Below are positions 1,670-55,048 of a stretch of 64,000 bases of DNA, piece after piece. This stretch comes from Octopus vulgaris (Eukaryota): assembly GCA_951406725.2 (NCBI GenBank), contig OX597816.1:86118001-86182000 (forward strand), given 5' to 3'. Position 1 is the first letter of the stretch, and each line of letters begins with the position of its first letter. The notes beneath the pieces are model-generated. The model searched no databases and had not been told where the DNA came from. It was given only the letters and a program-made list of their open reading frames with translations. The translations under genes were made by a program, and so were the position numbers.

Positions 1670-1902
<233 letters not shown>

Positions 1903-5545: not shown

Positions 5546-5749
5546 TCTTCTATTATTTTACTTGTTCCTGTCATTACACTGCAGCCATGCAGTTGAGAAT
5601 AGTTGAGAAAATCCTATGAGCTTTCAAATCGAACCTCATAATATAGGTCGTGGGAGATGCTTTCACGGGATGAAAATACTAGTTTAGAAGGCACTCAACA
5701 GACTATATGCTTTAACTATGATATACAGATCGGTAACATGTACTTACGT

Positions 5750-15281: not shown

Positions 15282-15389
15282 AACCATCAGTGCCACTGCG
15301 TGGTACATTGGGCAAGTGTCTTCCACTATAGCCTAGGGTTGACTGAAGTCTTGGGAGTGAATTTGGTAGACGGAAACTACAAGCAGCTC

Positions 15390-15467
<78 letters not shown>

Positions 15468-15695
15468 ATGCGTGTGTGTGTGTGCGTGGGTGTGTATGCT
15501 TGTGTCAGTGTTTGTCCCCTACCATCGTTTGACAGCCGATGCTGGTTTACGTACCAGTAACATAGCGGTTCAACAATAGAGACCGATAAAATAAGTACTC
15601 GTCTTGCAAAGACTAAGTCCTGGGATCGATTTGCTTGACCAAAGCTGGTGCTCCAGCATGCCTGCAGTGAAATGAATGAAACAAAGAAAAGATAA
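15282..15695 (+). mobile_element. SINE family B, 5'-decayed, with internal (TA)n(TG)n
   Basis: Colinear with 54420-54752, including the tail GGTGCTCCAGCATG..CAGT.AAATGA.TGAAACAA. Confidence 0.85.
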
Positions 15696-16049
15696 ACACC
15701 TAAAGAAAACCGGCTTCTGTCAAAGCATGTTTCTTCACTGCTGTTTGTATCCAGTGTGTCGTTGTTGGCAAATGTTCCTTCTGTCAGTTTGCTCCACCCA
15801 CTTTTTGGCTGGTATAAATTTCTCTCTTTTATATTTACATTTTTGTATATTATATATTATCATTTTTTTTCTTCCCCTCATATATTTCATGATGATGGAC
15901 TTTGACGTTGTTGAACAATCAATCCCAACTAGTCAGGATTAATAGCATGGATTGTACTCTTGATCCTTTTGATCACTGAAATCAAAACGTTAGTTACATA
16001 ACCCCCGTTCGGGTGAATTTTTTGAGTTAAAGTTCACCCTCGCACTTTA

Positions 16050-21143: not shown

Positions 21144-23339
21144 AAATAGAGACATGTGCATATACATCTATACATTTATATTTACATACATGCATACATA
21201 CATACATACATACGTAATACGTACCCACCTAACTACCTTTCTACCTACTTATATACTTGCATACATGCATATCTCTGTGCATGTGTGTAATTATGTATAT
21301 GTATATATTTCTTAAAATCTTCAAATCCAAAGTCAAGCGCATAACAACGCAATACTATACACAATTTTATTTATATATATTTTGAAATATTTTGGTATTC
21401 CTTAACTATCTATCATTTTCTTTTATATATTAACTCTCGTTGATTTTACATACATTTCATGAATGAATAATTATAACACTCCATTTTGAAATTCAAATAT
21501 TAAAGAAAATTAAGAAAAGGCTAAATAAAACGAGAAAATCCAAAATGAAATATAAAATTCACCAGAAATTTCATAACGGAAATATTTCTCTCACAGAATA
21601 TTTCCACGTCTGAAAATATAGTTTTATTTATTTCTGAGTGAGAAAATTACTATATATTTTCAGAAGTGAGGGAAATGTTTATTTTTAAGATAACTGGATT
21701 TCTCAAACGCATTTCTGAAATGAATAAAGATTAAAGAAAACACGACCAAAGTTATTAAACGTACTCTGCACTTGACGATCCCGTAACTTATCTGCTCTAT
21801 ATAAAATGAAAGCATGAACATTTGTTATCGCTTTATACAGAAATTCGAGCAGATTTTGAGCCTATGTCCATTAATTTAGAAATCTTAGATCTTTCTATAA
21901 TTCTTCGTGTTAGAATTGTGTTGAAATAGCTTTAAGCAAATTCAACAGGGATCCAATTTATTAATCATTAACCAGCTGCAACTGTCATGTAGAGGATGCC
22001 GAATTATTTCACGAAACTCATATAAAGATGGCCAATAACTTACTTCCCTTATCTTGCTCAATCAACTCCACAATTTCAAATATGGACATACTTTAATGTA
22101 ATCATATTCAAATATATTATCGAAACGAATTTACAAATTATCTGGAATTATATCGCTTAACACTCATAATGATGCAACTGATGAGATAGCGCGTCAAATT
22201 TAGTTATAAATATTGCCAAATAAACTGCTACCTATGTCTATAAATGCATCTATACATAAGTGTATGTGTGTGTGCCCGCGAGTACGTGTCTATAGTGCAA
22301 GGGGAAAACAAAAGAGATATTTTTAGTAAACGCTTTAACATTTAATATTATTTTATTCACTGTTCGAGTAGTTGGAGGAGACAGTCACACGGCTTGGTCA
22401 TATTTGAACCTCATTGACAAAGCCTAACATTCACATAGTTGCCGATGTAATGAGGAATATTTCACTAATTGCAATTTCATTTAATGACACATGGAAACAC
22501 ACTAGATTAAATAACTCAAAGAGATTTTACATACATATTTAATACATTGTTTTATATAACTATTTCTACATTTATATTTCTAGGTACCTTCTTAATGGTC
22601 CATGAATTATATATTCTCTTATTCGTTTACTTGTTTTAGTCATTTGCCTCAGGCCAAGCGGGAGCACCGAATTAAAAGGTTTTAATTGAAATAATGGACC
22701 CCAGGATTTTAACTGATTCTTTTGCCAAACCATTAAGTTACTATCATAGGATGTCAAGAGATGTCAGAGAGAAAAAAGATATATATATATATATATATAC
22801 ATGCATATTACGGAGATGTACTTGCATAGCATGTGATTTGATTTGAGAGCGTGTGCTGAAACAAAAAGCTTTGCAGCGTGGAAGATATTTGTAAGCCATT
22901 TAAGAACACACAAAAACGTTAGTTCGCTTGAACATTTAAAATTAATTTGTGTCAAAATATTTTCGTCGCTTTGAAACCACGACCTGTTCACTGAAAAAAC
23001 TTCGTGCTGGTTCTTTAAATGGCTCACAAACATCTACCCTTGAAGTTCACTATAGGTCTTCTGAAATAATCCTCATGATAAGTCAATTTTCTTGAGTTTT
23101 ACCTTACTATTCAACAACTGGCTGTTCCCAATCGGTCTATATCGCAACGTATTCAGGCGTGTGCCTCATCTATATATGTAATCTGAAATTCCGAGTATTG
23201 GACTGGTAATACCCAAGACGTATCAGTTCAAACCAATACCGCATATAAATGCTTCCAAAGAGTGTACTACATCTGATATAATCATGCAGCAGATATTGGA
23301 GCTATTCATGCTATACGTAAGCATTATCACCCAGCTGTA

Positions 23340-33962: not shown

Positions 33963-35087
33963 TTGTGTTTGAATGAGATTGCCGAAAAAACATCACAAGT
34001 GGTCAACACACGATCCGTCAAACAGATTCGTAGCAAGTTGAAACATATCGAAGTATCTTTCAAACTGATAAGAGGCCATTATGAAAAGCTTCTACATATT
34101 TTCACAGTTCAAGAACAACAACAGCTAGAAAATCAACAGCCACAACAACAACAACAACAGAATGAGCCACTCCTGGTTCCCAGCACAATGGCTGACCCTG
34201 ACATCGGCCAGGCACAACAACAACAACAACAGCCACAGCAACAAGAACAACAACAGCCACTCCTCAACTCTAGCTTACTAGACGATTCCCTAAATGCCAG
34301 TATCTTTTCACCGCTCTCACAGCAACCACCACAATTATCATCATCATCATCACCACCGCTGCCACCATCGTCTTCTATCACTATATATATATATATATAA
34401 CCAAATAAGAAACCACTGCCCTCTTCCCCCACATCACCACCTCAATACTACTGCAGTAACAAAAACTTAAAGAAACATAGGAAGCAGAATGCGCCCCCCA
34501 CGGCACAAACAAGAAATCCCCAAATATGCCGCTATTCACTGCGCCAGAGACTCTGCACAAATAGTGACTGCATCTTCACGCATCTACCCGGCACTAGACG
34601 CACTACCGGCCAAGGCCAAAGCACGCATCCCACAATAACATCAACACCACCAAATAGTAAATCGAAATTCAAAACACACACAACTCGGAGTCCCAAAATC
34701 TGCCGGTATTCCCAACGTGAGAGAACATGTCTACTGAGTGACTGTCCCTTCACTCATCTTCCAGGGACCCGACGCACAAACAGAAACGGGGCCTCAAGCC
34801 AACACACAAACCTGAATAACAATAAAAATAGAAACACACCATGCTGCAGTAATGCTGGTCCAGTCTTTTCAGGAAGACACAAAAACAACAACAACAAAAG
34901 TGGAAACTATAACCCTATCCAACAGTGCAACCACACCTCCAGCCAAAAACTGCTCCCTAAGCAGGAAAATTCTTTTTTAGCCATGTTGAACATGGCAAAA
35001 GAGATACACAAAAACATTCTAGCCATCACTCAACACCATCCTATGCTATTACCCCAGTGCACCAATTCCCCACATTGCTGCCACTAA
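33963..35087 (+). pseudogene. LINE ORF1 (polyQ/Pro-rich, two CCCH zinc fingers), one in-frame stop
   Basis: The 33963 frame stays open after TAA 34398-34400 (end of a TA run) until TAA 35085-35087; encodes CRYSLRQRLCTNSDCIFTHLPGTRR and CRYSQRERTCLLSDCPFTHLPGTRR. The ORF track misses the second half. Confidence 0.85.
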
Positions 35088-38000
35088 CACACACAAAAAA
35101 TCCAAGCCCCCTGCAACAGTCAAAACCAGCCACTACACTAACCTCCACATTCCTACTCAATGCACAAGGTGTCAGCTCTTCCATCAATGCACAAAAATGG
35201 AAGGTCCAATTCATTGAAGACTGGGTTGGTAACCATTCACACCACATCCCTTTCTTCATTCTCACTGAGACCCACCTTGACAACTCCCACTTGGAAGCCG
35301 AAGTGAGAGTGAAGAATTTCACAACCATCCGCGCGGATCGTATCGGCAGGAGGAAGGGTGGAACTGCCATTTTCCTGCATGATTCATTTACGGCAGATGG
35401 AAATAGTATATTCTCCAACGGCTACTGTGAATCAGTCACCGTGCACAACAAAGCCAATGACCTGATAGTAATTGGGCTCTATAGGCCGCCCCAAACACCC
35501 ATACTGTGCTTCAAAGAATGCCTCAACAGCATTAAGTGCTTTATTCAACAGTGCCATTCTAGCAACATACTCATGATGGGAGACTTCAATCTACCCTGTG
35601 TTGACTGGACTACAAACTGTTTGAAACCAAGCACTACCGCCTCAACCGCTGACAAAGAAGCAGCAGAGTCACTTTTCGACTTTACGAATGAGTTTTTCTT
35701 GTCCCAACTTGTCCTTGCACCAACAAGACATCAGAATATTTTGGACCTAGTGTTTAGTAACCACACTAACACTATACATAACGTTACAGTAGAAAAAACC
35801 CTTCTTTCAGACCATGACATGGTTCTCTGTAACATGAAATTCCACCAGCCGAAAGCTAATCCTTGTGACCTTCCTCCAGCTCACCCATTTGACAACATGG
35901 ATCTCCATAAAGCCAACTGGGATGCAATCAGGAACGAGCTATCAAATGTTGACTGGTCCTTTACACATACACACATCTCCACCAACCATAAAACATCTTG
36001 GCAGATCTTTGTAGACACCGTCACAGACATATGTGCAAAACACTCCCCACCAAGACCTGTGAACAAAAAGTGCAGAATCCCCCAAAACAGAAAAACCATT
36101 ATCAGAAAAATAAAAAGAACAAACAAAAAAATTAACAAACTAAAGTACTGCCAACAGCAACACACACATTCGACGGCTATCGCACTGCTTGAATCCAAAA
36201 AATATAACCTCCAACAATGCATGAAGACCCTCATCAATAACCAAAGATCAGCTGAGGAGAAGTGGGCCATTGAAAAAATCAAACTCAACCCCAAAGTGTT
36301 CTTTTCATTTGCGAGGAAACGCAGGGTCACTGTCTCCACTGTAGGCCCTCTAATTGACGAAACTGGCACTCTCCAAGATAATGCGAAATCCATGGCCGAG
36401 ATACTGCAGAAACAATACTGCTCTGTTTTCAGCAATCCTGATATGGCCGATCTGGGCTGTATCAGTGATGTCAACCCCCAACACACTATATCGGACATAA
36501 CGTTTAGTGCCCCTGATGTCTTAGCGGCGATAAACGAAATAAAACACAATTCAGCAGTAGGCCCCGATAGGTTCCCTGCTTGTGTCCTGAAGGTGTGTCG
36601 ACACCAACTTGCATCTCCCCTTGCTAATATGTGGTGAAACTCACTGGATGCTGGCTATATTCCAAAAAACCTTCTGTCCCAGTCTGTTGTCCCAGTTTTC
36701 AAAAAGGGAAACAAGTCCCTTGCAGTGAATTACCGTCCGATCTCACTCACCTCTCATATCATCAAGGTATTTGAGAGGGTGGTGAGATCTCGAATAACCC
36801 AATTTCTGGAAAGCAACAGACGGCTGATCTCCAACCAACATGGGTTCCGTAATGGAAGGGACTGCCTAACGCAGCTCCTGCATCACTTTGAGGACATTTT
36901 GAGAGCTTTGGGAGAGGGCTCCAACACCGATGTCATCTACCTTGATTTCAGTAAGGCCTTCGACAGGGTCGATCACAAGATCCTATTGAAAAAACTATCC
37001 AACATTGGTGTCTCTGGAAAGTTACTGAAATGGATTAAGTGTTTCCTGACAGACAGATCTCAACATGTTGTAGTTGAAGGGGTAAAATCAAGCCCAGCCA
37101 AAGTCAGTAGTGGCGTTCCGCAAGGCACTGTGCTGGGCCCACTTCTTTTCATCATTTACATTAATGACATTAATGACATCATCAAGCACAGCAACATAAA
37201 AATCTTTGCAGATGACTCCAAGCTACAGAAGGTCATAAATGAGGCGAGTGACCGGACATGCCTTCAGTCAGATCTACTGGCTGTTATCCAATGGGCAGAA
37301 AAAAACAATATGCTGCTGAACGAGGATAAATTTGAGCTAATCCACTTTGGAAAAGAGGATGCCCTGAAACTCCCATACTCCCTTCCTTCAGGTGAAACTC
37401 TCGCGGCGTCCAACAACATCAGAGACTTGGGAGTAATTGTGGATAACAACGTAAGCTGGGCCACTCATATAAACACCAAAGTTGACATGGCCCGCAGAAT
37501 GTGTTCCTGGATTCTCAGAACTTTCCAGTCGAGAGATATCCACACCATTATCCTTCTCTTCTCCACTTTTGCCCGACCCCACCTTGAATACTGTTGTCCA
37601 CTGTGGTCTCCCCACACAATACAAGGTATCATAAAAGTCGAAGCACCTCAAAGGGCAATCACAAAAAAGATAGATGGCATGACAGGCCACGACTATTGGG
37701 GTCGACTAGAAAAGCTAAAACTCTATTCTCTCCAACGTCGTCGTGAGCGCTACATCATCTGCATGATGTGGAAAATATTCCATCAGCATTGCCCAAATGA
37801 TGTTGGCATCACCTTTAAGGTACATCCAAGGCTTGGGCCCCGTGCCATCCGCCCAAAACAAAAATCGCACTCTCATCTCATAACAACAATACGGCACAAT
37901 TATTTCACCTCAATTGGCCCCGCTCTCTTTAACATTACACCAAAACACATTAAAACAGAAACTGACCCTATAGGGTTCAAGAAGTCTTTGGACAGATTCC

Positions 38001-38092
38001 TTCAAGAAATCCCGGATAAACCCCCTACACCCGGATATGTCTCTGTAAACAATAACTCTCTACTTGAGTGGGCCATAGTGCCCAAATTCTGA
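34961..38092 (+). pseudogene. LINE ORF2 (APE endonuclease + reverse transcriptase), single premature TGA
   Basis: APE motifs LTET, GDFN, LDL, SDH; RT motifs NYRPISL, DFSKAFD, GVPQG, FADD. ORFs 35057-36637 and 36725-38092 share a frame, split only by TGA 36635-36637 (plausibly CGA>TGA). Confidence 0.95.
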
Positions 38093-38512: not shown

Positions 38513-38589
38513 TTATGTCAGCATCATGATGAACAAAAACTTTTAGATACTGCCCACACGGAGTCCATAGTGATAATGGGAGGCAATTA

Positions 38590-39660
38590 GTGGTAAGGGG
38601 AGGCAATCGGCAGCCAACCCCAATTTTCCAGCACAGAAATATTCCCTTTAATGTAAATGGTAACACTCTGAACAATTATAAGTCCACAAAAAACTATATC
38701 TGGTTTGTCATACCTGTCGGAAAACAAATCAAGTCAAACCTTCCTTTACAGATCCGTGAAGCCGTAGCTAGGAACTTTCCCAAGAATTCTAGCTATTACT
38801 CTACTATCAATTCGCATAAGGTAAGGATTGCATTCTCTAACACTAGAAATCTATCGCAAATTATTGCCTCCCATAATAACAAGCTGCTAAATAAGGATTC
38901 TTCACCCGGGAGTTACGACACTGCTCTTACCAGTTCCAACCAAAGATACAATAATAATAATAATAGAAATAGTATTGATAATTGCAACATTCATAGCAGC
39001 GTTGGCATTAACAATGGTAATATTAATAATATTAGTCGGATTATTAACAGTGGTAGTGTTAGTGGTAGTAACGACAACATTTCTAATAACAGTGGTAGTA
39101 TTGGTGATAACAATCCCAGCATTGCTATAGTCAGGGATATTGCCGCCGATAGTACAATTAATAGTAATGACAATAATAGGAATAGTACAGTGGTCAATGC
39201 TAGCAATAATATTAACAGCAATCATAACAATAAAAACTCCGTCTTAGTCTCGGAGGTAAACCCTAACAGATTAAAGTTCTTGTGCAGCAATTCCAAAATT
39301 AGAAATTCCATTTACCAGTGTAAAATTTCTTCCGGTACCGCTGTCTACATTGGGGCGACTACTTCTAAATTATCCCAGAGGATTTCCAATCATTATTCAA
39401 CTTTTCGAGATAAGAGAAAACAACAAATCACAGGACTAAGTAAATTAGTTTGGCGTCTTAAGGACAGCAATATAACTTTCAAGCTGGAATGGTCCATATT
39501 GCCTGTATCCTTTCCGTTTGATAAGGGCAGAACATTTTGTGGCGTCTGTAATTCCGAGCTTTTCCATATACTCTTCGCCAAATTCCCTTTGGTAAACACA
39601 ATGGTAGAAAAATCCTATAGGTGTATGCACTGGAAAGAAACACACCTTTCACTCATATGA
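38590..39660 (+). CDS. Penelope linker + GIY-YIG endonuclease with Asn-rich insertion (no RT)
   Basis: KNYIWF..NFPKN..IIASHNNKLL linker; SIYQC..VYIGAT..RISNH..F; CGVC..E..N..RCMH C-terminus. Confidence 0.8.
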   Translation: MVRGGNRQPTPIFQHRNIPFNVNGNTLNNYKSTKNYIWFVIPVGKQIKSNLPLQIREAVARNFPKNSSYYSTINSHKVRIAFSNTRNLSQIIASHNNKLLNKDSSPGSYDTALTSSNQRYNNNNNRNSIDNCNIHSSVGINNGNINNISRIINSGSVSGSNDNISNNSGSIGDNNPSIAIVRDIAADSTINSNDNNRNSTVVNASNNINSNHNNKNSVLVSEVNPNRLKFLCSNSKIRNSIYQCKISSGTAVYIGATTSKLSQRISNHYSTFRDKRKQQITGLSKLVWRLKDSNITFKLEWSILPVSFPFDKGRTFCGVCNSELFHILFAKFPLVNTMVEKSYRCMHWKETHLSLI

Positions 39661-40519: not shown

Positions 40520-40794
<275 letters not shown>

Positions 40795-48444: not shown

Positions 48445-50048
48445 AAGAGCGAAAAATAGGGGGAAATAGACAGTGACTAGGAAAAGGTAATTCAGTTTTT
48501 GATAGCGAATCGGCGTCGAGTGAAAGAGCAAAGAAGAAAATTTGTTGGCTTACATCTTATGCTAATAAGATCGAGAAGTTTCATGTATTTTGCAACAAGC
48601 ATGCCAGAACAATGATAGTAATTGCTAACCGTGGGGTGAAGATCAGAAAAAACATACGCATGGCTATACACACAAACACACACAAACACACACACACACA
48701 CACACACGCACACACGCACAATGAAATGAATTCAAAGAAACGCTAGCTCACACACATGAACACTCACGGACAAACACATACACATACAAACACACGTCAT
48801 ATAAAAACACGCACACAAACATACATATATGTTCTATATGGATATGAAGAAGATTTGTTCTTCAGATATTTTATCGAAGAAATTAGGTAGTACGCACACC
48901 CTCTCTCCTTTTCCCTCTCTTCTTATCTCTTTCCCGATGCCCACTCTCTCTTTCACGTTCTCTCTTCTTGAAAGTAGTATGAAAGACATGAAAGTTTAAA
49001 TTGTTGGGGAACATGAAACAAACAGCTGAGACAAACGCACATGATTTTATACGGAATGTACACAGAAGGTCTGTTGAAAGTTAGAAAAGAAGAAAAATTA
49101 ATACCAGGAGAAATTAGGAGCTAATGAATAGGAAAAATGAAATATTATATGAAAGAAAATCTAAATTGCACAAAAACGTTGAAAGAATAGCACAAATTTT
49201 TAATTACGAATGTGACAAACAAATAATATTTTATTAGATGTGGGACTAGAAAACAAGCACACATTTGTTATAGATATAGAGTACTTATATTCATAATGAG
49301 GTTTGCACAAATATTGGTTTGTGTAGATTTTACCGAAATTAGTTTCAGAATATTTGACAAGAAGGTAACAGAATAGGTGCTTGACTAAAACGATGTCACA
49401 GGAACAAATATATCTTCAGTGAAAAACAACATAAAGAAACGTGAGAAGTAATGAAATATGAAATGGAATTAGTTTAAAATTCAAACTAATATAAAATATA
49501 TCCGTTATCTGTTATATATTATTATATACATTATTTCAGAAAAAAAGTATATCAATGAAAATAGAAGAGGAAATTTAACATAGAATTATAGTGGTGTTAT
49601 ATAGCTATCGACCTCATTTTTACCACGCACGTACATACACACCCACGAATACACATACATAGATTCATTTGTATGAGTATATATAAAAACAATTTGAAAT
49701 TAAACTGAAGAATTAATACTTATTAGCAGATTAATACAGATTTAATAAAAGTTTAGATTGAAACAGTGATTATGCAACTGCTTGTTTGCATAATGAGATT
49801 TAGTTGTGTTTCCTCAGGTGATATACGAGTGTTGTCTCCGTTAGTTTAATATCCAATTTCTTCAATTTTACATCCACGCACAGCTAATGACCAAACTTCA
49901 GCTGTGAAGTATATAATACTACTACTGATAGTACTTGGTAATTCTGAACGTGGCCGTGCTTTATACTGCACACTACCACGTTTCTAACGGAATACGATAT
50001 AACTATATATATATATAGGCGTGACCGTGTGGTAAGAAGCTTGCTTCC

Positions 50049-51219
50049 GCGCATGCATTGTCTAATAGTTGTGTGAATTTGTTGAGAGTCGACGGTTTTA
50101 TCATGCTGCTTAGAAAATGTATTCATACCTTAGCGGGTCTGAGTTGTCTTCAGCAGAGGAGGAGCTGGTAAGAGTGGTCGTAAAGATGGACGGAGTGTTG
50201 GAGAAGACATTCTGAGGTCACGGAGATGATGCGAAGGGAGTTAGACTTGGTAGCTGGTCTGATGGCGTATGAGAAGATGGTACAGAAGGTGGCCGGCGAC
50301 TTCCCCAAAAGGAATTATGGAGCGGATGGAGAGAAACACGATCACCTATAAGGTGTTCTCGTTAAACGGTGTTCTTATAAAAAGGTCAAGCAGGTAGAAA
50401 CTGAAATGGAAAAGGCGCTAAAGGAGTGGTCAAAGGAAATAACATACATAACTAAAAGAAGGAGATATGGGACAATAGTCGTTCAGTTTAGGACAGTAGT
50501 GGTGGCGAGGAGGCTGGCGACTGTAGCGGTGAAAATCGAAGTAGTGCTTCTGCACGCATACATTGGAAGAAAGACTTCCAAGGTAAGGATAGTAGCAGTC
50601 CCACCTGATATAGAAGGGGCTTGGGTGGCGGCGGCTGCCCTTATTAGAAGTGAGGAGATAGTGGCTGTCCTTCAAGCCACAGAAACGGAAAAAGGAGGGT
50701 AGAAAGGGAAGATACTAGAACTAATTATACAGGCGGAGGAACAGCATGTGGAGAGTTTGGAAGAGACGGTGACGTTGGGGGAAATTGTGCTGAGAGTATG
50801 GCTAGAGGGCAGAGTACCATGTTGTTTTAAATGTGGCCAAACGTGTCACATTAGCGCATACTGCCCTCTACAAAGGACAATAACAGAGGAAACACTTGTG
50901 GCGACGGAAGAGAAAAGAGAGGAAGAAAAGACAGACGGAGGTAAGGAGGAAAAGGAGGCAGAATGGAGATTAACAGAAAGTAGAAGGAAGAGACGAAAAG
51001 AAAGAACACGGAGTTTGATGTGGCACCCAGCCCAACTCCATCCCACCCAATACCACTCAGACCCATCCATGTTATCATAATTTTAATTTGATTCCATGTT
51101 CATTTTCATGTGTCATTCATATAATATTATATTTTTAGATATTTCTAATTGTTTAATGTCACCACATATATTGTAGTGTCCCCTATATGTAATGCCTTTA
51201 TGGCAAAAATATTGAAATA
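50049..51219 (+). mobile_element. ORF1-only retroposon copy 1 (decayed), 15-bp TSD
   Basis: AAGAAGCTTGCTTCC at 50034-50048 and 51220-51234; 3' TGCCTTTATGGCA (51193-51205) then GAAATAAA. Confidence 0.9.
50406..51080 (+). pseudogene. ORF1/gag-like zinc-knuckle protein, one in-frame TAG
   Basis: ORFs 50406-50702 and 50748-51080 share a frame; PPDIE..W, W.G (TAG in place of W), LEGRVPCCFKCGQTCHISAYCP (CX2CX4HX4C); aligns with 52894-53763. Confidence 0.8.
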
Positions 51220-52195
51220 AAGAAGCTTGCTTCCCAACCATATGGTTCCGCGATCAGCCCCACTGTGTGGCACATTGGACAAATGTCTTCTGCTATAGCC
51301 TCGGGCCGACCAAAACCTTTTGAGTGGATTTGGAAGACGGAAAGTGTCATTAATATGTGTGTGTGTGTGTGTGTGTATGTTTGTGTATCTGTGTTTGTCC
51401 CTCCATATTCGCTTGACAACTGATGATCGTGTGTTTACGTCCCCGTAACTTAGTGGTTCGGCAAAAGAGACGATAGAATAGTACTAGAATTATAAAGAAT
51501 AAGTCTGTTCGACTAAAGGGGGTACTCCAGCATGGCAGCAGTTATATAGCTTAAACAAATAAAAGAATAACAAGAATAATAGAATACACACACAGACACA
51601 AATATATATATATTTATTATATATGTGTATATATATGTAATAATAGAAATAATATATATATAACTAATGTAGGATAAATATTTATTTTTTTTCGAGAAAA
51701 AAATTTTATCAATGGCCAGCATATCAAAAAATACCTTTAAATGTTAAATTTATAAATAATTTACAAAATGAGGGCAAAAGAAAAATTCTAATGCCAAATA
51801 TGCCGAAAAAAAGACAAAAATTGTCAATAACCATTGTAATTTATGCGTCTCGAAACAAACCGATAGAAATTTCTAAAAAATCCGTTATTACCGTATTGGT
51901 CCCAATTTCGGGGTTAATTCATAAGAATTCTCCCCTCTTCAACGATAAATACGCGAGATATAAGTGAAATACTCATACCCATGGAAAAAGCAAGCACTAA
52001 GTCCTGAGCAGACCTAAGTACCCGAAATATATCTAAAATAGAAAATCTTCGGCACATCTCGAGACACGTGTGATTCGAACTAGAAACTTTCACAGAGTGA
52101 GAGAATCCTGAAGTGAACACTATTAAATTTATAACTAATGTACGATAAATTGATAACTAATGTAGGAGTGGCTGTGTGGTAAGTAGCTTGCTAAC

Positions 52196-54388
52196 GCACA
52201 TTCGCAGTTAGTCAGTTGCTTCCTGTTCAGCCAGAGTGGACGCGAGTCAACCAGCTCCGTCCAATTAAAGAAAAAAGACCAAAAACGGAAAGTTGTCGAG
52301 GTAAGTGATTTTGTTTATTGTGAGTTGGGCATAATTTATTGCGTGCCAATTATTATTTCAGTAAGTTGTGTCCAACTCTGAGACAATTTCGCCTGCTCTC
52401 GGCGGCTGCCGTTTTTGTGTTCATTGAAAAAAAAAAGAAAAAACAGTGGAGGGGCGTATCCTCGGAATTCAATACAGTTACTGTTAAAATTACCGTTGGC
52501 GGTAGCCAGTGCTGTGTTTCGGTTTGTTGAATTTATTCCCTTGTCAGAGTACTTCGCAAGAAAATTATAGAAATAAGCCACTATTGGATTACCTTTCGGA
52601 CCCATTTTTGTGGAGGTTGTGTTGCAGTTGCGGCGTTCCAGATTCAACCCAGGCCGGGAGTACCGCAAGGCCAGAATATTTTTGCTGTGTTTTTTCTGTT
52701 TATTAACTTTCTTTTGAACTTCATTTAACACTCCCTTTTGTTTTTTTTCTTTATTGCGACTTTCCGTTGATTTCTTCCCTTCTGTTGTGCTTTCTCCTTT
52801 TTGTATTTTCAAAAATCTATCAAATTTTATTTGGACTTTTGAACTTTTTTCTTCTTGCTTTTTGAGTTTAATTTGAATATATTTAAAAAAAACATGGCAA
52901 TGAAAAATAACAAAATTTTGGAGTGGGAAATCATACCACCTAAAAAGTGGTTAAAAGACCGTGAAGATAGGACGGTGGTGTTGAGAACCTACTCCAAGGC
53001 ACTCGACACCATCGCCCTATTCGAAAAGACGGCAATTGAAAAGGAGTTGGAAGAGTATTTGCCAACAATTAAATTCATTTCCAGGGGTGTCAAATATGCA
53101 ACGGTGTGGTTGCTATTTGACACCCCTGAAGAGGCTTGCAAATTTGCTAGCAAACCCCGGGAGTGTAGGGAAATCTTATTCCTGCCAACGTACAAAAAAA
53201 AGAAATTGATGAAAGCTTGGATCTGCGGGCTGCCACCCGACATAGAACCCGAGTGGATAGAGGAGACTATCCGCCGGGGTCTGGGTGGCAGCGAAACTAA
53301 GCTCCTTAATGTAAAAGTTCTTCCTGCGGCTGCTTGGGTTGGGTCAAAAACAATTTTGACCCTGTGGACCCAATCAGCCAATCTGGTTCTTCCAGATTTT
53401 TTGAAAATGGCCGGGTGCAGGTACCCGGTGATGCTTGAGGGTCGCCCCCCTAAGTGTCATCGGTGCTTGGAGTCCGGCCACATAAAGAAGAACTGTCCCC
53501 GGGAACAAAATAGGATCCCGGAACAGTTAAGTAAAACCCCTCTAGAAGAGGGAATGATAACGGCCGAGAAAGCAGAGGACTCCTCAAACAGAGGCCGAAA
53601 GAGGAAGGTGAGCAACAATGGGTGCTCACCAAAGGATAATAGGGATGAGGATAAGAAGGCGAATCTTCCAGCCACGGAGGAGACGCACCCTCCCTCAGTT
53701 GAAAAGGGAAAAAAAAGAAAAAGAGGAAGAAAAACGGGACATAGCCGGCTGTCAGTGACATAGCACCGGAATGTCCCGGAACTACGTCGGTTGGGGTTGT
53801 TCCACCGACAAGAGAAGGAATACCGTTGGCGGGAACTGTGCCGCCAACGAAAGAACTGAACGTGTTGGTCCTCTTCTATAGAGGAGGCGAAATTGAAAAG
53901 GTGATGGAAGAGCACCACAAGGGAGCACCTTTAGCCTTCACACAGGACCCCGAATGGCCTCCGCAGGTAGCTGTGGAGGCCGTGGCGTTCGACGTGACGT
54001 TTGGGCTAAAGGAGCTCAATGAAGATTATAACTTGGTCCCGGGCGACGCAAACTCGGAACTTGATTACGTTCTGAGGGAGGCGTGGTTGATGGTGGAGGG
54101 CGCGGGCACAAGCTATTTCGAGGACGATATGTAATTATTGAACTGTTATTATTAGTAATGGACTGCTAAGTCCAAAAATTGGAAAAATTGTAAGAGGTTT
54201 AATACCTCGTTTTGTGTTTATCTTTAAAAAGAACAATGTTTTAGAGAAGCGAAAGTCGGCGGGCGCTTTTTGTCTTCTCCCATCCTTATCATCTTTCTTT
54301 CATTATCATTCACTTCATTAATGTCCTCGTCCAGCCTGCAAAGCTAACTTAATCTGTGTACTGCCTTTATGGCAAATGTTTCGAAATA
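52196..54388 (+). mobile_element. ORF1-only retroposon copy 2, 15-bp TSD
   Basis: AAGTAGCTTGCTAAC at 52181-52195 and 54389-54403; about 700-bp 5' UTR; 3' TGCCTTTATGGCA (54362-54374) then GAAATAAA; no RT or EN motifs seen. Confidence 0.92.
52894..53763 (+). CDS. L1/Tx1-type ORF1-like nucleic-acid-binding protein with CCHC knuckle
   Basis: First ATG at 52894; GLPPDIEPEW, LEGRPPKCHRCLESGHIKKNCP (CX2CX4HX4C), basic KRK clusters. An RRM-like fold upstream is inferred only. Confidence 0.8.
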   Translation: MAMKNNKILEWEIIPPKKWLKDREDRTVVLRTYSKALDTIALFEKTAIEKELEEYLPTIKFISRGVKYATVWLLFDTPEEACKFASKPRECREILFLPTYKKKKLMKAWICGLPPDIEPEWIEETIRRGLGGSETKLLNVKVLPAAAWVGSKTILTLWTQSANLVLPDFLKMAGCRYPVMLEGRPPKCHRCLESGHIKKNCPREQNRIPEQLSKTPLEEGMITAEKAEDSSNRGRKRKVSNNGCSPKDNRDEDKKANLPATEETHPPSVEKGKKRKRGRKTGHSRLSVT

Positions 54389-55048
54389 AAGTAGCTTGCT
54401 AACCAACCACATGGTTCCGGGTTCAGTCCCACTGCGTGGGATCTTGGGCAAGTGTCTTCTGCTATAGCCCCGGGCCAACCAATGCCTTGTGAGTGGATTT
54501 GGTAGACGGAAACTGAAAGAAGCCTGTCGTATATATATCTATATATGTATATGCGTATGTGTGTGTGTTTGTCCCCCTAGCATTGCTTTACAACCGATGC
54601 TGGTGTGTTTACATCCTCGTCAATTAGCGGTTCGGCAAAAGCGACCGATAGAATAAATACTGGGCTTACAAAGAATAAGTCCCGGGGTCGATTTGCTCGA
54701 CTAAAGGCGGTGCTCCAGCACGGCCGCAGTCAAATGACTGAAACAAGTAAAAATATATGCTTGACCGCTAAATCCACGATTTGTTTTTATTCTCTGCCTG
54801 TTTATTTTTTCTTACTTCTTTTGTTGTAGGGCTTAGGATCGAAGCGTAAAATTCTTTTTTACTTTCCTGATCGTCAAACTAATGCGCTTGCTTTTTGTTC
54901 GTGCGCCTGTCTTCATCTTCTTTTTTCTTTAAATTTCAGCTATATATATATATATATATATTCTCCCTTCTCGTCTTTCTTCTTCTTCCTCTTCTTCTTC
55001 ATCATCATCATTATCATCATCATCTTCGTCATAATCATCAACATCGTC

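Follow-up and report, generated by a model that had tools for sequence, protein, structure and literature searches.

ORF1-only retroposons at a single position of a SINE in Octopus vulgaris and a LINE that may mobilise them in trans

How two retroposons without a reverse transcriptase (RT) gene came to occupy exactly the same position in two neighbouring short interspersed elements (SINEs) is the question raised by a 64,000-nucleotide stretch of the Octopus vulgaris genome (contig OX597816.1, positions 86,118,001 to 86,182,000 of the forward strand), hereafter the window, whose own numbering is used throughout. In both SINE copies the insert lies directly 3' of a GTGTGGT head, and a sequence-only reading had taken the two inserts, here element 1 and element 2, for members of one old, diversified non-autonomous family that supplies its own RNA-packaging protein and borrows a site-specific enzyme. 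They are very probably non-autonomous 'half-LINE' retroposons, that is, elements with only the first open reading frame (ORF1) of a long interspersed element (LINE), which belong to two long-separated lineages and would be mobilised in trans by the ORF2 protein (ORF2p) of a helper LINE. Relatives of element 1 are referred to as family A and relatives of element 2 as family B.

Element 1 (50049–51219; 1171 bp) is enclosed by exact 15-bp direct repeats at 50034–50048 and 51220–51234, and element 2 (52196–54388; 2193 bp) by exact 15-bp repeats at 52181–52195 and 54389–54403, all on the + strand; the insert lengths, the exact target duplications and the common SINE position first noticed in the sequence were thus reproduced. 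The inserts are indeed not alignable internally as DNA, the sole clear blastn match between them being the last 32 bp (27/32, E 5e-5), and their ORFs are linked as protein (tblastx, E 5e-8), which agrees with the claim that both encode homologous CCHC zinc-knuckle proteins. Neither element contains an APE endonuclease or RT match, as had been stated, and the only ORF2-like match in the window is an unrelated LINE at 36335–37150. The termini had also been described as shared, which holds for the 3' end but not for the 5' ends, where blastn gave no match between elements 1 and 2 and a short GCGCATGC-like motif is all that some of the copies have in common. A segmental duplication of both window units was ruled out, as the inserts belong to different families.

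Families A (~1.4 kb) and B (~2.0–2.3 kb) are dispersed, multicopy and RT-less, and share the layout of a 5' untranslated region (UTR), a single ORF1 encoding two RNA recognition motif domains and a CCHC knuckle (RRM-RRM-CCHC), and a short 3' end, with no ORF2. In the 2.8-Gb genome, the best 150 of 11,050 candidates found with the element 2 protein core were scored (81–100% identity), as were the best 40 of 387 candidates for family A, which are ~1.4 kb long with 75–84% DNA identity to element 1. SINE head and body flank both sides of the insert (2.18–2.28 kb) in 28 of the 30 best B loci, the exceptions being a tandem copy behind another copy (L021) and a locus without the 3' end (L013). For family A, the 3' end could be located in 21 of 30 loci, 19 of which adjoin the target and two of which do not, and SINE head or target stands on the 5' side in 26 of 30. 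No ORF2 was found inside the B inserts of 30 loci, the one match lying outside the insert at the edge of L017; ORF2 matches in two of 30 A loci are both upstream of the element's 5' terminus, and ORF2 is absent from every full-length A or B insert in a catalogue of 84 inserts. The many diverged RT-less subfamilies make the RT-less form recurrent, as had been anticipated. A whole ORF of at least 410 amino acids (aa) is kept in six of the top 30 B loci, and intact copies encode 412–414 aa.

The single ORF of both families is a LINE ORF1 with a tandem RRM-like fold and a CCHC knuckle. The B protein aligns with ORF1s located directly upstream of APE-RT ORF2s in the same genome (best 34%, pairwise E 4e-30); AlphaFold2 modelled its residues 1–205 well (block pLDDT mostly 70–89) and the rest poorly, the best Foldseek matches are tandem-RRM proteins (E ~1e-4, low TM-scores), and VIA-align returned RRMs with Z up to 8.3 and no single stand-out. 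Pfam gave just a sub-threshold zf-CCHC match and no Transposase_22 match, and the C-terminal 105 aa of the B protein (pLDDT <50) had neither a Pfam match nor a usable Atlas match, which establishes neither novelty nor absence. The combination of RRM and CCHC defines type I ORF1p, which has been reported for Tx1-like animal elements (PMC5203782); the ORF1 of the helper LINE described below also counts as type I, by its own CCHC and the RRM fold modelled for the homologous B ORF. A retroviral or long terminal repeat (LTR) Gag origin of the ORF was rejected, since PDB profile matches cover the zinc knuckle only and the whole core aligns with LINE ORF1s.

The ORF1 of the RT-less families is under purifying selection, the outcome of the dN/dS comparison among copies that the sequence-only reading had proposed. 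The median dN/dS is 0.23 in family B (64 scorable of 66 pairs from 12 copies; dS ~1 between subfamilies) and 0.40 in family A (55 pairs from 11 copies), values that are raised by post-insertion decay. Among 31 young B copies, private variants have a nonsynonymous to synonymous (N:S) count of 389:168, at a site ratio of 3.3, and variants present in at least three copies one of 25:39. In a 45-row ORF1 tree, which omitted most young B copies and segments shorter than 110 aa, A (10 rows) and B (18 rows plus an Octopus sinensis protein) are each strongly supported, and a single origin of A and B is not rejected (approximately unbiased test, AU p = 0.38). Of the proposed single old and diversified family, therefore, the diversified RT-less subfamilies stand, while one family and two origins are not distinguished. 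Searches for wider protein homologues with P0001 as query returned only two Octopus sinensis proteins, and a search with the alignment only one. The annotated Octopus sinensis proteins P0002 and P0003 consist wholly or partly of an A/B-type transposon ORF, P0003 having ~45 residues of it fused to an integrase-domain piece.

Insertion is highly specific in position. Exact filled junctions of the type 'element end + target' number 862 in the genome, with 0 for the reversed-pattern control, and the exact 26-nt empty site occurs 92,537 times, so that ~0.9% of scorable sites are filled. The exact young-B 3' end (a pattern excluding G at the last place) occurs 217 times, and the target comes next in 100 of 100 listed (at most one mismatch in 9); with the 28 of 30 B loci and 19 of 21 A loci, this bears out the expectation that homologous copies share the SINE position. 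Sixty of 100 listed junctions were fetched. The initial 20, taken from the first 21 with one already known B copy passed over, comprise 13 B, 1 A, 4 helper and 2 unclear junctions; all 60 comprise 41 B, 3 A, 10 helper and 6 unclear, a tally biased away from GCTAAC hosts by the choice of the later 40.

The insertions are independent of one another. Inserts of the 31 young B copies differ by 2.3% and their host SINEs by 9.0% (Mantel p 0.78), and the closest insert pairs (0.000–0.003 apart) sit in hosts 5–14% apart; with hosts ~4 times more diverged than inserts, SINE and insert are not moving as one unit. In seven helper copies the inserts differ by 1.3% and the hosts by 7.3%, and 5'-truncated copies as well as the off-target copy L037 bear their own duplications. 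The sequence-only reading had drawn independence from duplications that copy the variant of their own host; independence stands on the different families and the host versus insert distances, but not on the duplications alone, because the left repeat is often partly donor-derived. It ends in CTAAC or CTTACC instead of the host variant in all 12 full-length B copies whose hosts are of the GTTTAC type, and two of three truncated inserts in such hosts copy the host variant. Judged from these junction sequences, full-length RNA may start within the duplication, its first letters helping to form the 5' junction.

Several observations accompany these insertions. The family-A copy L037 sits at a site other than a SINE and is flanked by a perfect 15-bp duplication starting with AAG. 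GCTAAC-type and GTTTAC-type hosts are favoured by young elements (helper 7 of 7 in GCTAAC, L208–L214; B 25 of 32 in both types together) and make up ~30 of the first 100 empty sites listed, as counted by eye, a skew that may reflect preference or sampling. Mixed tandems of helper and half elements around a shared duplication are present at L207, L021, L032, L039, L048, L049, L053 and L060, and on C9 the spacing of three helper 3' ends is ~5.4 kb. The host SINE itself, a possible tRNA-derived one, is represented by the 92,537 exact 26-nt matches; its A-box-like and B-box-like stretches were recognised by eye from the box consensus, and it has no tRNA or Rfam match. It is possibly of the octopus OR2/CORE type (PMC4758252).

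An autonomous APE-RT partner with the same target and 3' end had been predicted, and one was found by way of the sampled junctions, ORF2 C-termini standing directly before the target in three of the first 20 loci. This likely helper is a ~5.45-kb L1/Tx1-type LINE with ORF1 and an APE-RT ORF2 that shares the target, the duplication and the 3' hairpin. A search with its ORF2 gave 150 scored matches, many with open frames of 1133–1150 aa. Eight of nine fetched helper loci are full length (5.18–5.46 kb) and lie within the SINE, seven with 15–16-bp duplications, and the ninth (L207) is sandwiched between two half elements. The representative L208 encodes an open 467-aa ORF1 with a CCHC knuckle and a 1133-aa ORF2 with endonuclease (EN), RT and zf-RVT domains; the other helper ORF2s are 97.7–99.6% identical to it (L207, 92.7%), and as the copies are near-identical and intact, the helper has probably been active recently. 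The exact 3' end of L208 occurs 107 times in the genome, 98 of 100 listed adjoining the target, and a regular expression placed the target downstream of 32 of 40 RT loci, one of the eight misses being the tandem L207 locus. All 40 fetched target-linked RT loci form one group by ORF2 identity, and ORF1 was recovered from four of six older helper copies, all of the L207/L208 type. In an RT tree built without curated Tx1/L1 references, the helper falls within an octopod radiation with an Argonauta protein among its members, and it scores 311 bits against 'Transposon TX1 149 kDa' and 229 bits against the solved LINE-1 ORF2p, over different query spans; of the two clades, Tx1 is the more probable.

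The top 30 zf-RVT loci were rejected as helper, as they belong to other LINE families with 3' ends lacking the target, except L091, which adjoins a target-like stretch. A sister LINE family (L112, L113 and L114; the closest in the RT tree) ends at another fixed 3' motif within another repeat in three of three loci, with 5.4-kb tandems, and is probably a second target-specific family. The related LINE at L119 ends in an (ATT)n microsatellite, a possible case of microsatellite targeting.

What the helper and the half elements have in common at the sequence level is their 3' end. Over 56 distinct 3' ends from A, B and helper copies, 92.8% of cells are paired in a 4-bp stem that precedes GAAATA, and 16 cells are changed on both sides; 0 of 500 shuffles scored as high, and slid controls were 13–53% paired. 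In the window, the hairpin occupies 51193–51205 in element 1, followed by the GAAATA end without poly(A), and 54362–54374 in element 2. A mechanism can be proposed in which the helper endonuclease sets the site and the 3' hairpin recruits the helper RT, both of which we infer from established target-primed reverse transcription. Transcription of the element would begin at or just inside the left duplication, and its own ORF1p would package the RNA in cis, while helper ORF2p would bind the 3' hairpin and GAAATA end in trans, nick the SINE just 3' of the A-box-like stretch and prime reverse transcription there. A second nick ~10–16 nt away, together with pairing of the cDNA end with target-like letters, would close the 5' junction. 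The outcome would be a nest of three tiers: the SINE as host, the site-specific LINE, and ORF1-only dependants more numerous than their helper. Mobilisation of ORF1-only elements in trans has precedents (PMC3159450, PMC5786205, PMC3627910).

A number of points weigh against this reading. Neither A nor B is sister to the helper ORF1 in the 45-row tree, and identity to the helper ORF1 is 28–29% for B and 34–35% for A, so that descent from this helper is not shown. At the DNA level, half elements and helper have no clear similarity beyond the last 20–45 nt, and similar 3' ends occur in other LINEs of the same genome without the target. The hairpin is short, RNAalifold kept two of its four pairs, and the covariation counts are inflated by kinship among the sequences. 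Insert and host distances of the seven helper copies are weakly correlated (r 0.56, p 0.06), and host distances in general contain some microsatellite letters, which inflate them. The pattern of the left repeat also has exceptions, as in L076, an older full-length B copy, the repeat is identical to the GTTTAC host, and in one of the three truncated inserts it is not.

It is conceivable that the half-element ORF1p also guides the element to the SINE, for instance via RNA polymerase III (Pol III) factors as proposed for TRE5-A, whose ORF1p binds TFIIIB in vitro (PMC3159450). The insertion site lies between A-box-like and B-box-like stretches, and ORF1 is conserved though distant from the helper ORF1, but the single-base precision common to the helper, to both half-element families and to short truncated copies is what an endonuclease sequence preference would give, the main determinant of target choice according to PMC4494074, and degenerate old SINEs such as host 1 are occupied too; such guidance is considered unlikely. 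We regard it as distinctly improbable that the RT-less subfamilies arose one by one, each from its own unsampled autonomous LINE by a recent deletion of ORF2, with the selection on ORF1 inherited. This explanation gains from the scoring of only the best candidates (150 of 11,050) and from the recovery of ORF1 from only part of the older helper copies, and loses from the single group formed by the 40 fetched target-linked RT loci, the L207/L208-type ORF1s of older copies (4 of 6), the lack of ORF2 in any full-length A or B insert of the 84-insert catalogue and the selection seen also within the young, uniformly RT-less B copies (shared N:S 25:39).

A composite of SINE and insert retroposed as a unit, its site specificity inherited from a few founders, would account for the partly donor-derived left duplication of full-length copies and for the enrichment of young copies in GCTAAC- and GTTTAC-type hosts relative to the first 100 empty sites listed. 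This is very improbable and largely refuted by near-identical inserts (0.000–0.003) in hosts 5–14% apart and the lack of insert-host correlation, and it also has to face inserts down to 51 bp, tandem sandwiches and an off-target copy, all with their own duplications. That the ORF is a host gene or retrogene family is hardly credible: the P0002 relative is annotated as an uncharacterised Octopus sinensis protein, but the dispersed copies number in the hundreds, have no introns, bear duplications and are mostly broken (six of the top 30 B loci keep a whole ORF), and the ORF is clearly homologous to LINE ORF1s. Trans mobilisation of ORF1-only half elements by the helper ORF2p is thus the reading preferred here.

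Among known systems, HAL1 (half-L1) of mammals is non-autonomous, encodes ORF1p only in an ORF long kept open, and needs ORF2p in trans (PMC5753468, PMC3627910). Families A and B, as ORF1-present bipartite non-autonomous LINEs, resemble it in a single ORF homologous to a LINE ORF1, no EN or RT coding between the termini, target duplications of their own, multiple copies, purifying selection and a 3' end shared with the partner, although over the last 20–45 nt only. They are not HAL1 in the strict sense, as HAL1 derives from mammalian L1 and has an ORF1 of the Transposase_22 type (PMC5203782), whereas the octopus elements have RRM and CCHC with no Transposase_22 match, lack a poly(A) tail and are inserted at one nucleotide position. 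TRE5-A.2 of Dictyostelium discoideum keeps ORF1, has a large ORF2 deletion and is mobilised in trans by the full-length element, and is also similar in its dependence on a structured 3' end and its targeting to Pol III units (PMC3159450). According to the same paper, however, TRE5-A integrates ~50 bp upstream of tRNA genes via TFIIIC/TFIIIB and not at a fixed base inside a SINE, and TRE5-A.2 is a direct derivative of its helper, for which a 25%-identical foreign ORF1 failed, whereas the A and B ORF1s are 28–35% identical to that of the octopus helper.

Target-specific Tx1 LINEs (Tx1L in Tx1D, Keno, Kibi, Koshi and the crocodilian Tx1-Mar) share with the helper an APE-RT and a fixed multicopy target, transposons included, and SINEU-3 is a non-autonomous rider that shares a target and forms tandems around the duplication (PMC4494074). 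The targets given in the available text of that paper are DNA transposons, LTR elements, snRNA and 5S genes, satellites and microsatellites, whereas the octopus target is a SINE, and SINEU-3 is non-coding, whereas the A and B riders encode ORF1. HeT-A (Jockey clade), which targets telomeres, and Ag-Sponge (CR1 clade) are likewise ORF1-only LINE derivatives (PMC5786205), and R2 SIDEs are site-specific non-autonomous riders of R2/R1, although short (R2Dwi_SIDE, 529 bp) and internally deleted (PMC3414825); all of these differ from the octopus elements in clade and target. In the available text of PMC5786205, ORF1-only derivatives are listed for Jockey, L1 and CR1 only and none for Tx1.

The claim that the combination is undescribed thus holds in part: an ORF1-only element with a targeted site is already represented by TRE5-A.2 and HeT-A, but no SINE-targeting Tx1 with ORF1-only dependants, nor any SINE-targeting Tx1 or half-Tx1 at all, appeared in the literature searched, although supplements, outside that search, may list such families. 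The separate parts (HAL1, TRE5-A.2, target-specific Tx1) are known and their combination appears to be new. In O. vulgaris, L1-Tx1 is placed among the groups with recent activity, with 13 families and 421 insertions (PMC13282606), so half elements may already sit undescribed in a repeat library; the main text of that annotation has 0 occurrences of HAL1, non-autonomous, nested and target. We hold it evenly balanced whether the octopus elements form an uncatalogued three-tier parasite system, made of a Tx1-type LINE landing at one base position of an abundant SINE and one or two ORF1-only lineages whose ORF1 has gone on evolving to less than 35% identity with that of the helper, and which still use the helper ORF2p and outnumber the helper. 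In that case co-evolution of ORF1p and ORF2p would not be required in this LINE group, 40 nt of 3' signal would suffice to recruit the enzyme, and the pair of helper and half element would be a natural assay of the role of ORF1p in cis.

Two things not met with in the literature searched are thereby added: a SINE as a target of APE LINEs with sequence specificity, and dependants with ORF1 only for elements of the Tx1 type. One apparent helper serves dependants whose ORF1s are very different, which makes it possible to test whether ORF1p has to match ORF2p or only its own RNA; TRE5-A, by contrast, did not tolerate a foreign ORF1. In the helper, a highly specific endonuclease-RT of compact size becomes available for which the target is defined, and the elements provide dated, position-fixed markers for octopus phylogeny, besides causing false gene models (P0002).

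The 5' ends of the half elements are variable. L002, L009 and L018 (first 350 bp) are young B copies with near-identical bodies and at least three different 5' UTR heads, which suggests 5'-end swapping, and one young-B head type is similar to what L219–L221, older copies of the helper, have at the 5' end. Many A and B copies have a GCGCATGCG-like palindrome at their 5' end or close to it, including window positions 50049–50058 and 52196–52205, and helper copies L208–L214 lack it there; it resembles what we take to be an NRF1-type site and is thus a candidate internal promoter element. As to expression, contigs from four runs cover 24–30 of 30 bins, a kind of data that is no sign of a transcript, a start or a strand. 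The 106-bp insert at L069 fuses the extreme 5' and 3' ends of family B and may be a mini element without coding capacity.

Both window copies are damaged. The degenerate 5' head of host SINE 1 (50018–50033) matches the host 2 head at 81% and contains what we take to be an A-box-like stretch (50022–50032). Element 1 is an old, decayed family-A copy that lacks ~250 bp near 51068 in comparison with its 1.4-kb relatives (L033/L034), and its ORF1 (50277–51080), 58% identical to the open ORF of L059, is broken by stops and a frameshift, with the CCHC knuckle near 50823–50867. The rest of host SINE 1 (51235–51575; body, (TG)n and tail) is 81% (head/body) and 77% (tail) identical to a young SINE copy, with a presumed degenerate B-box-like stretch near 51251, recognised by eye. 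The 5' head of host SINE 2 (52164–52180) has a stretch at 52169–52179 which, by eye, we presume to be A-box-like. Element 2 is a young, full-length family-B copy (~93–97% DNA identity to L022 and L011) whose ORF of 412–414 aa is broken by a frameshift into an N-terminal part of 289 aa (52894–53763), with two RRM-like domains, the CCHC knuckle (aa 187–202) and a basic linker before the premature end, and a C-terminal piece in another frame (53745–54134), the two being joined in intact copies such as L004 and L022. The rest of host SINE 2 (54404–54752; body, microsatellite and tail) is 95% and 93% identical to a young SINE copy and includes a B-box-like stretch, presumed by eye, at 54420–54430. 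All these features lie on the + strand, and no tRNA or Rfam family was matched in the window or in 18 LINE loci.

Elsewhere in the window, a separate LINE ORF2 with endonuclease and RT domains spans 34961–38089 (+), with one stop at 36635–36637; its RT is only 22–29% identical to Tx1-type RTs, which places it in another clade. A 375-aa open frame without a Pfam match (38533–39657) lies 3' of this ORF2. Partial host-SINE copies without inserts are located at 15287–15696 (+), 40520–40652 (-), 1815–1861 (-), 22615–22669 (-) and 5546–5590 (-).

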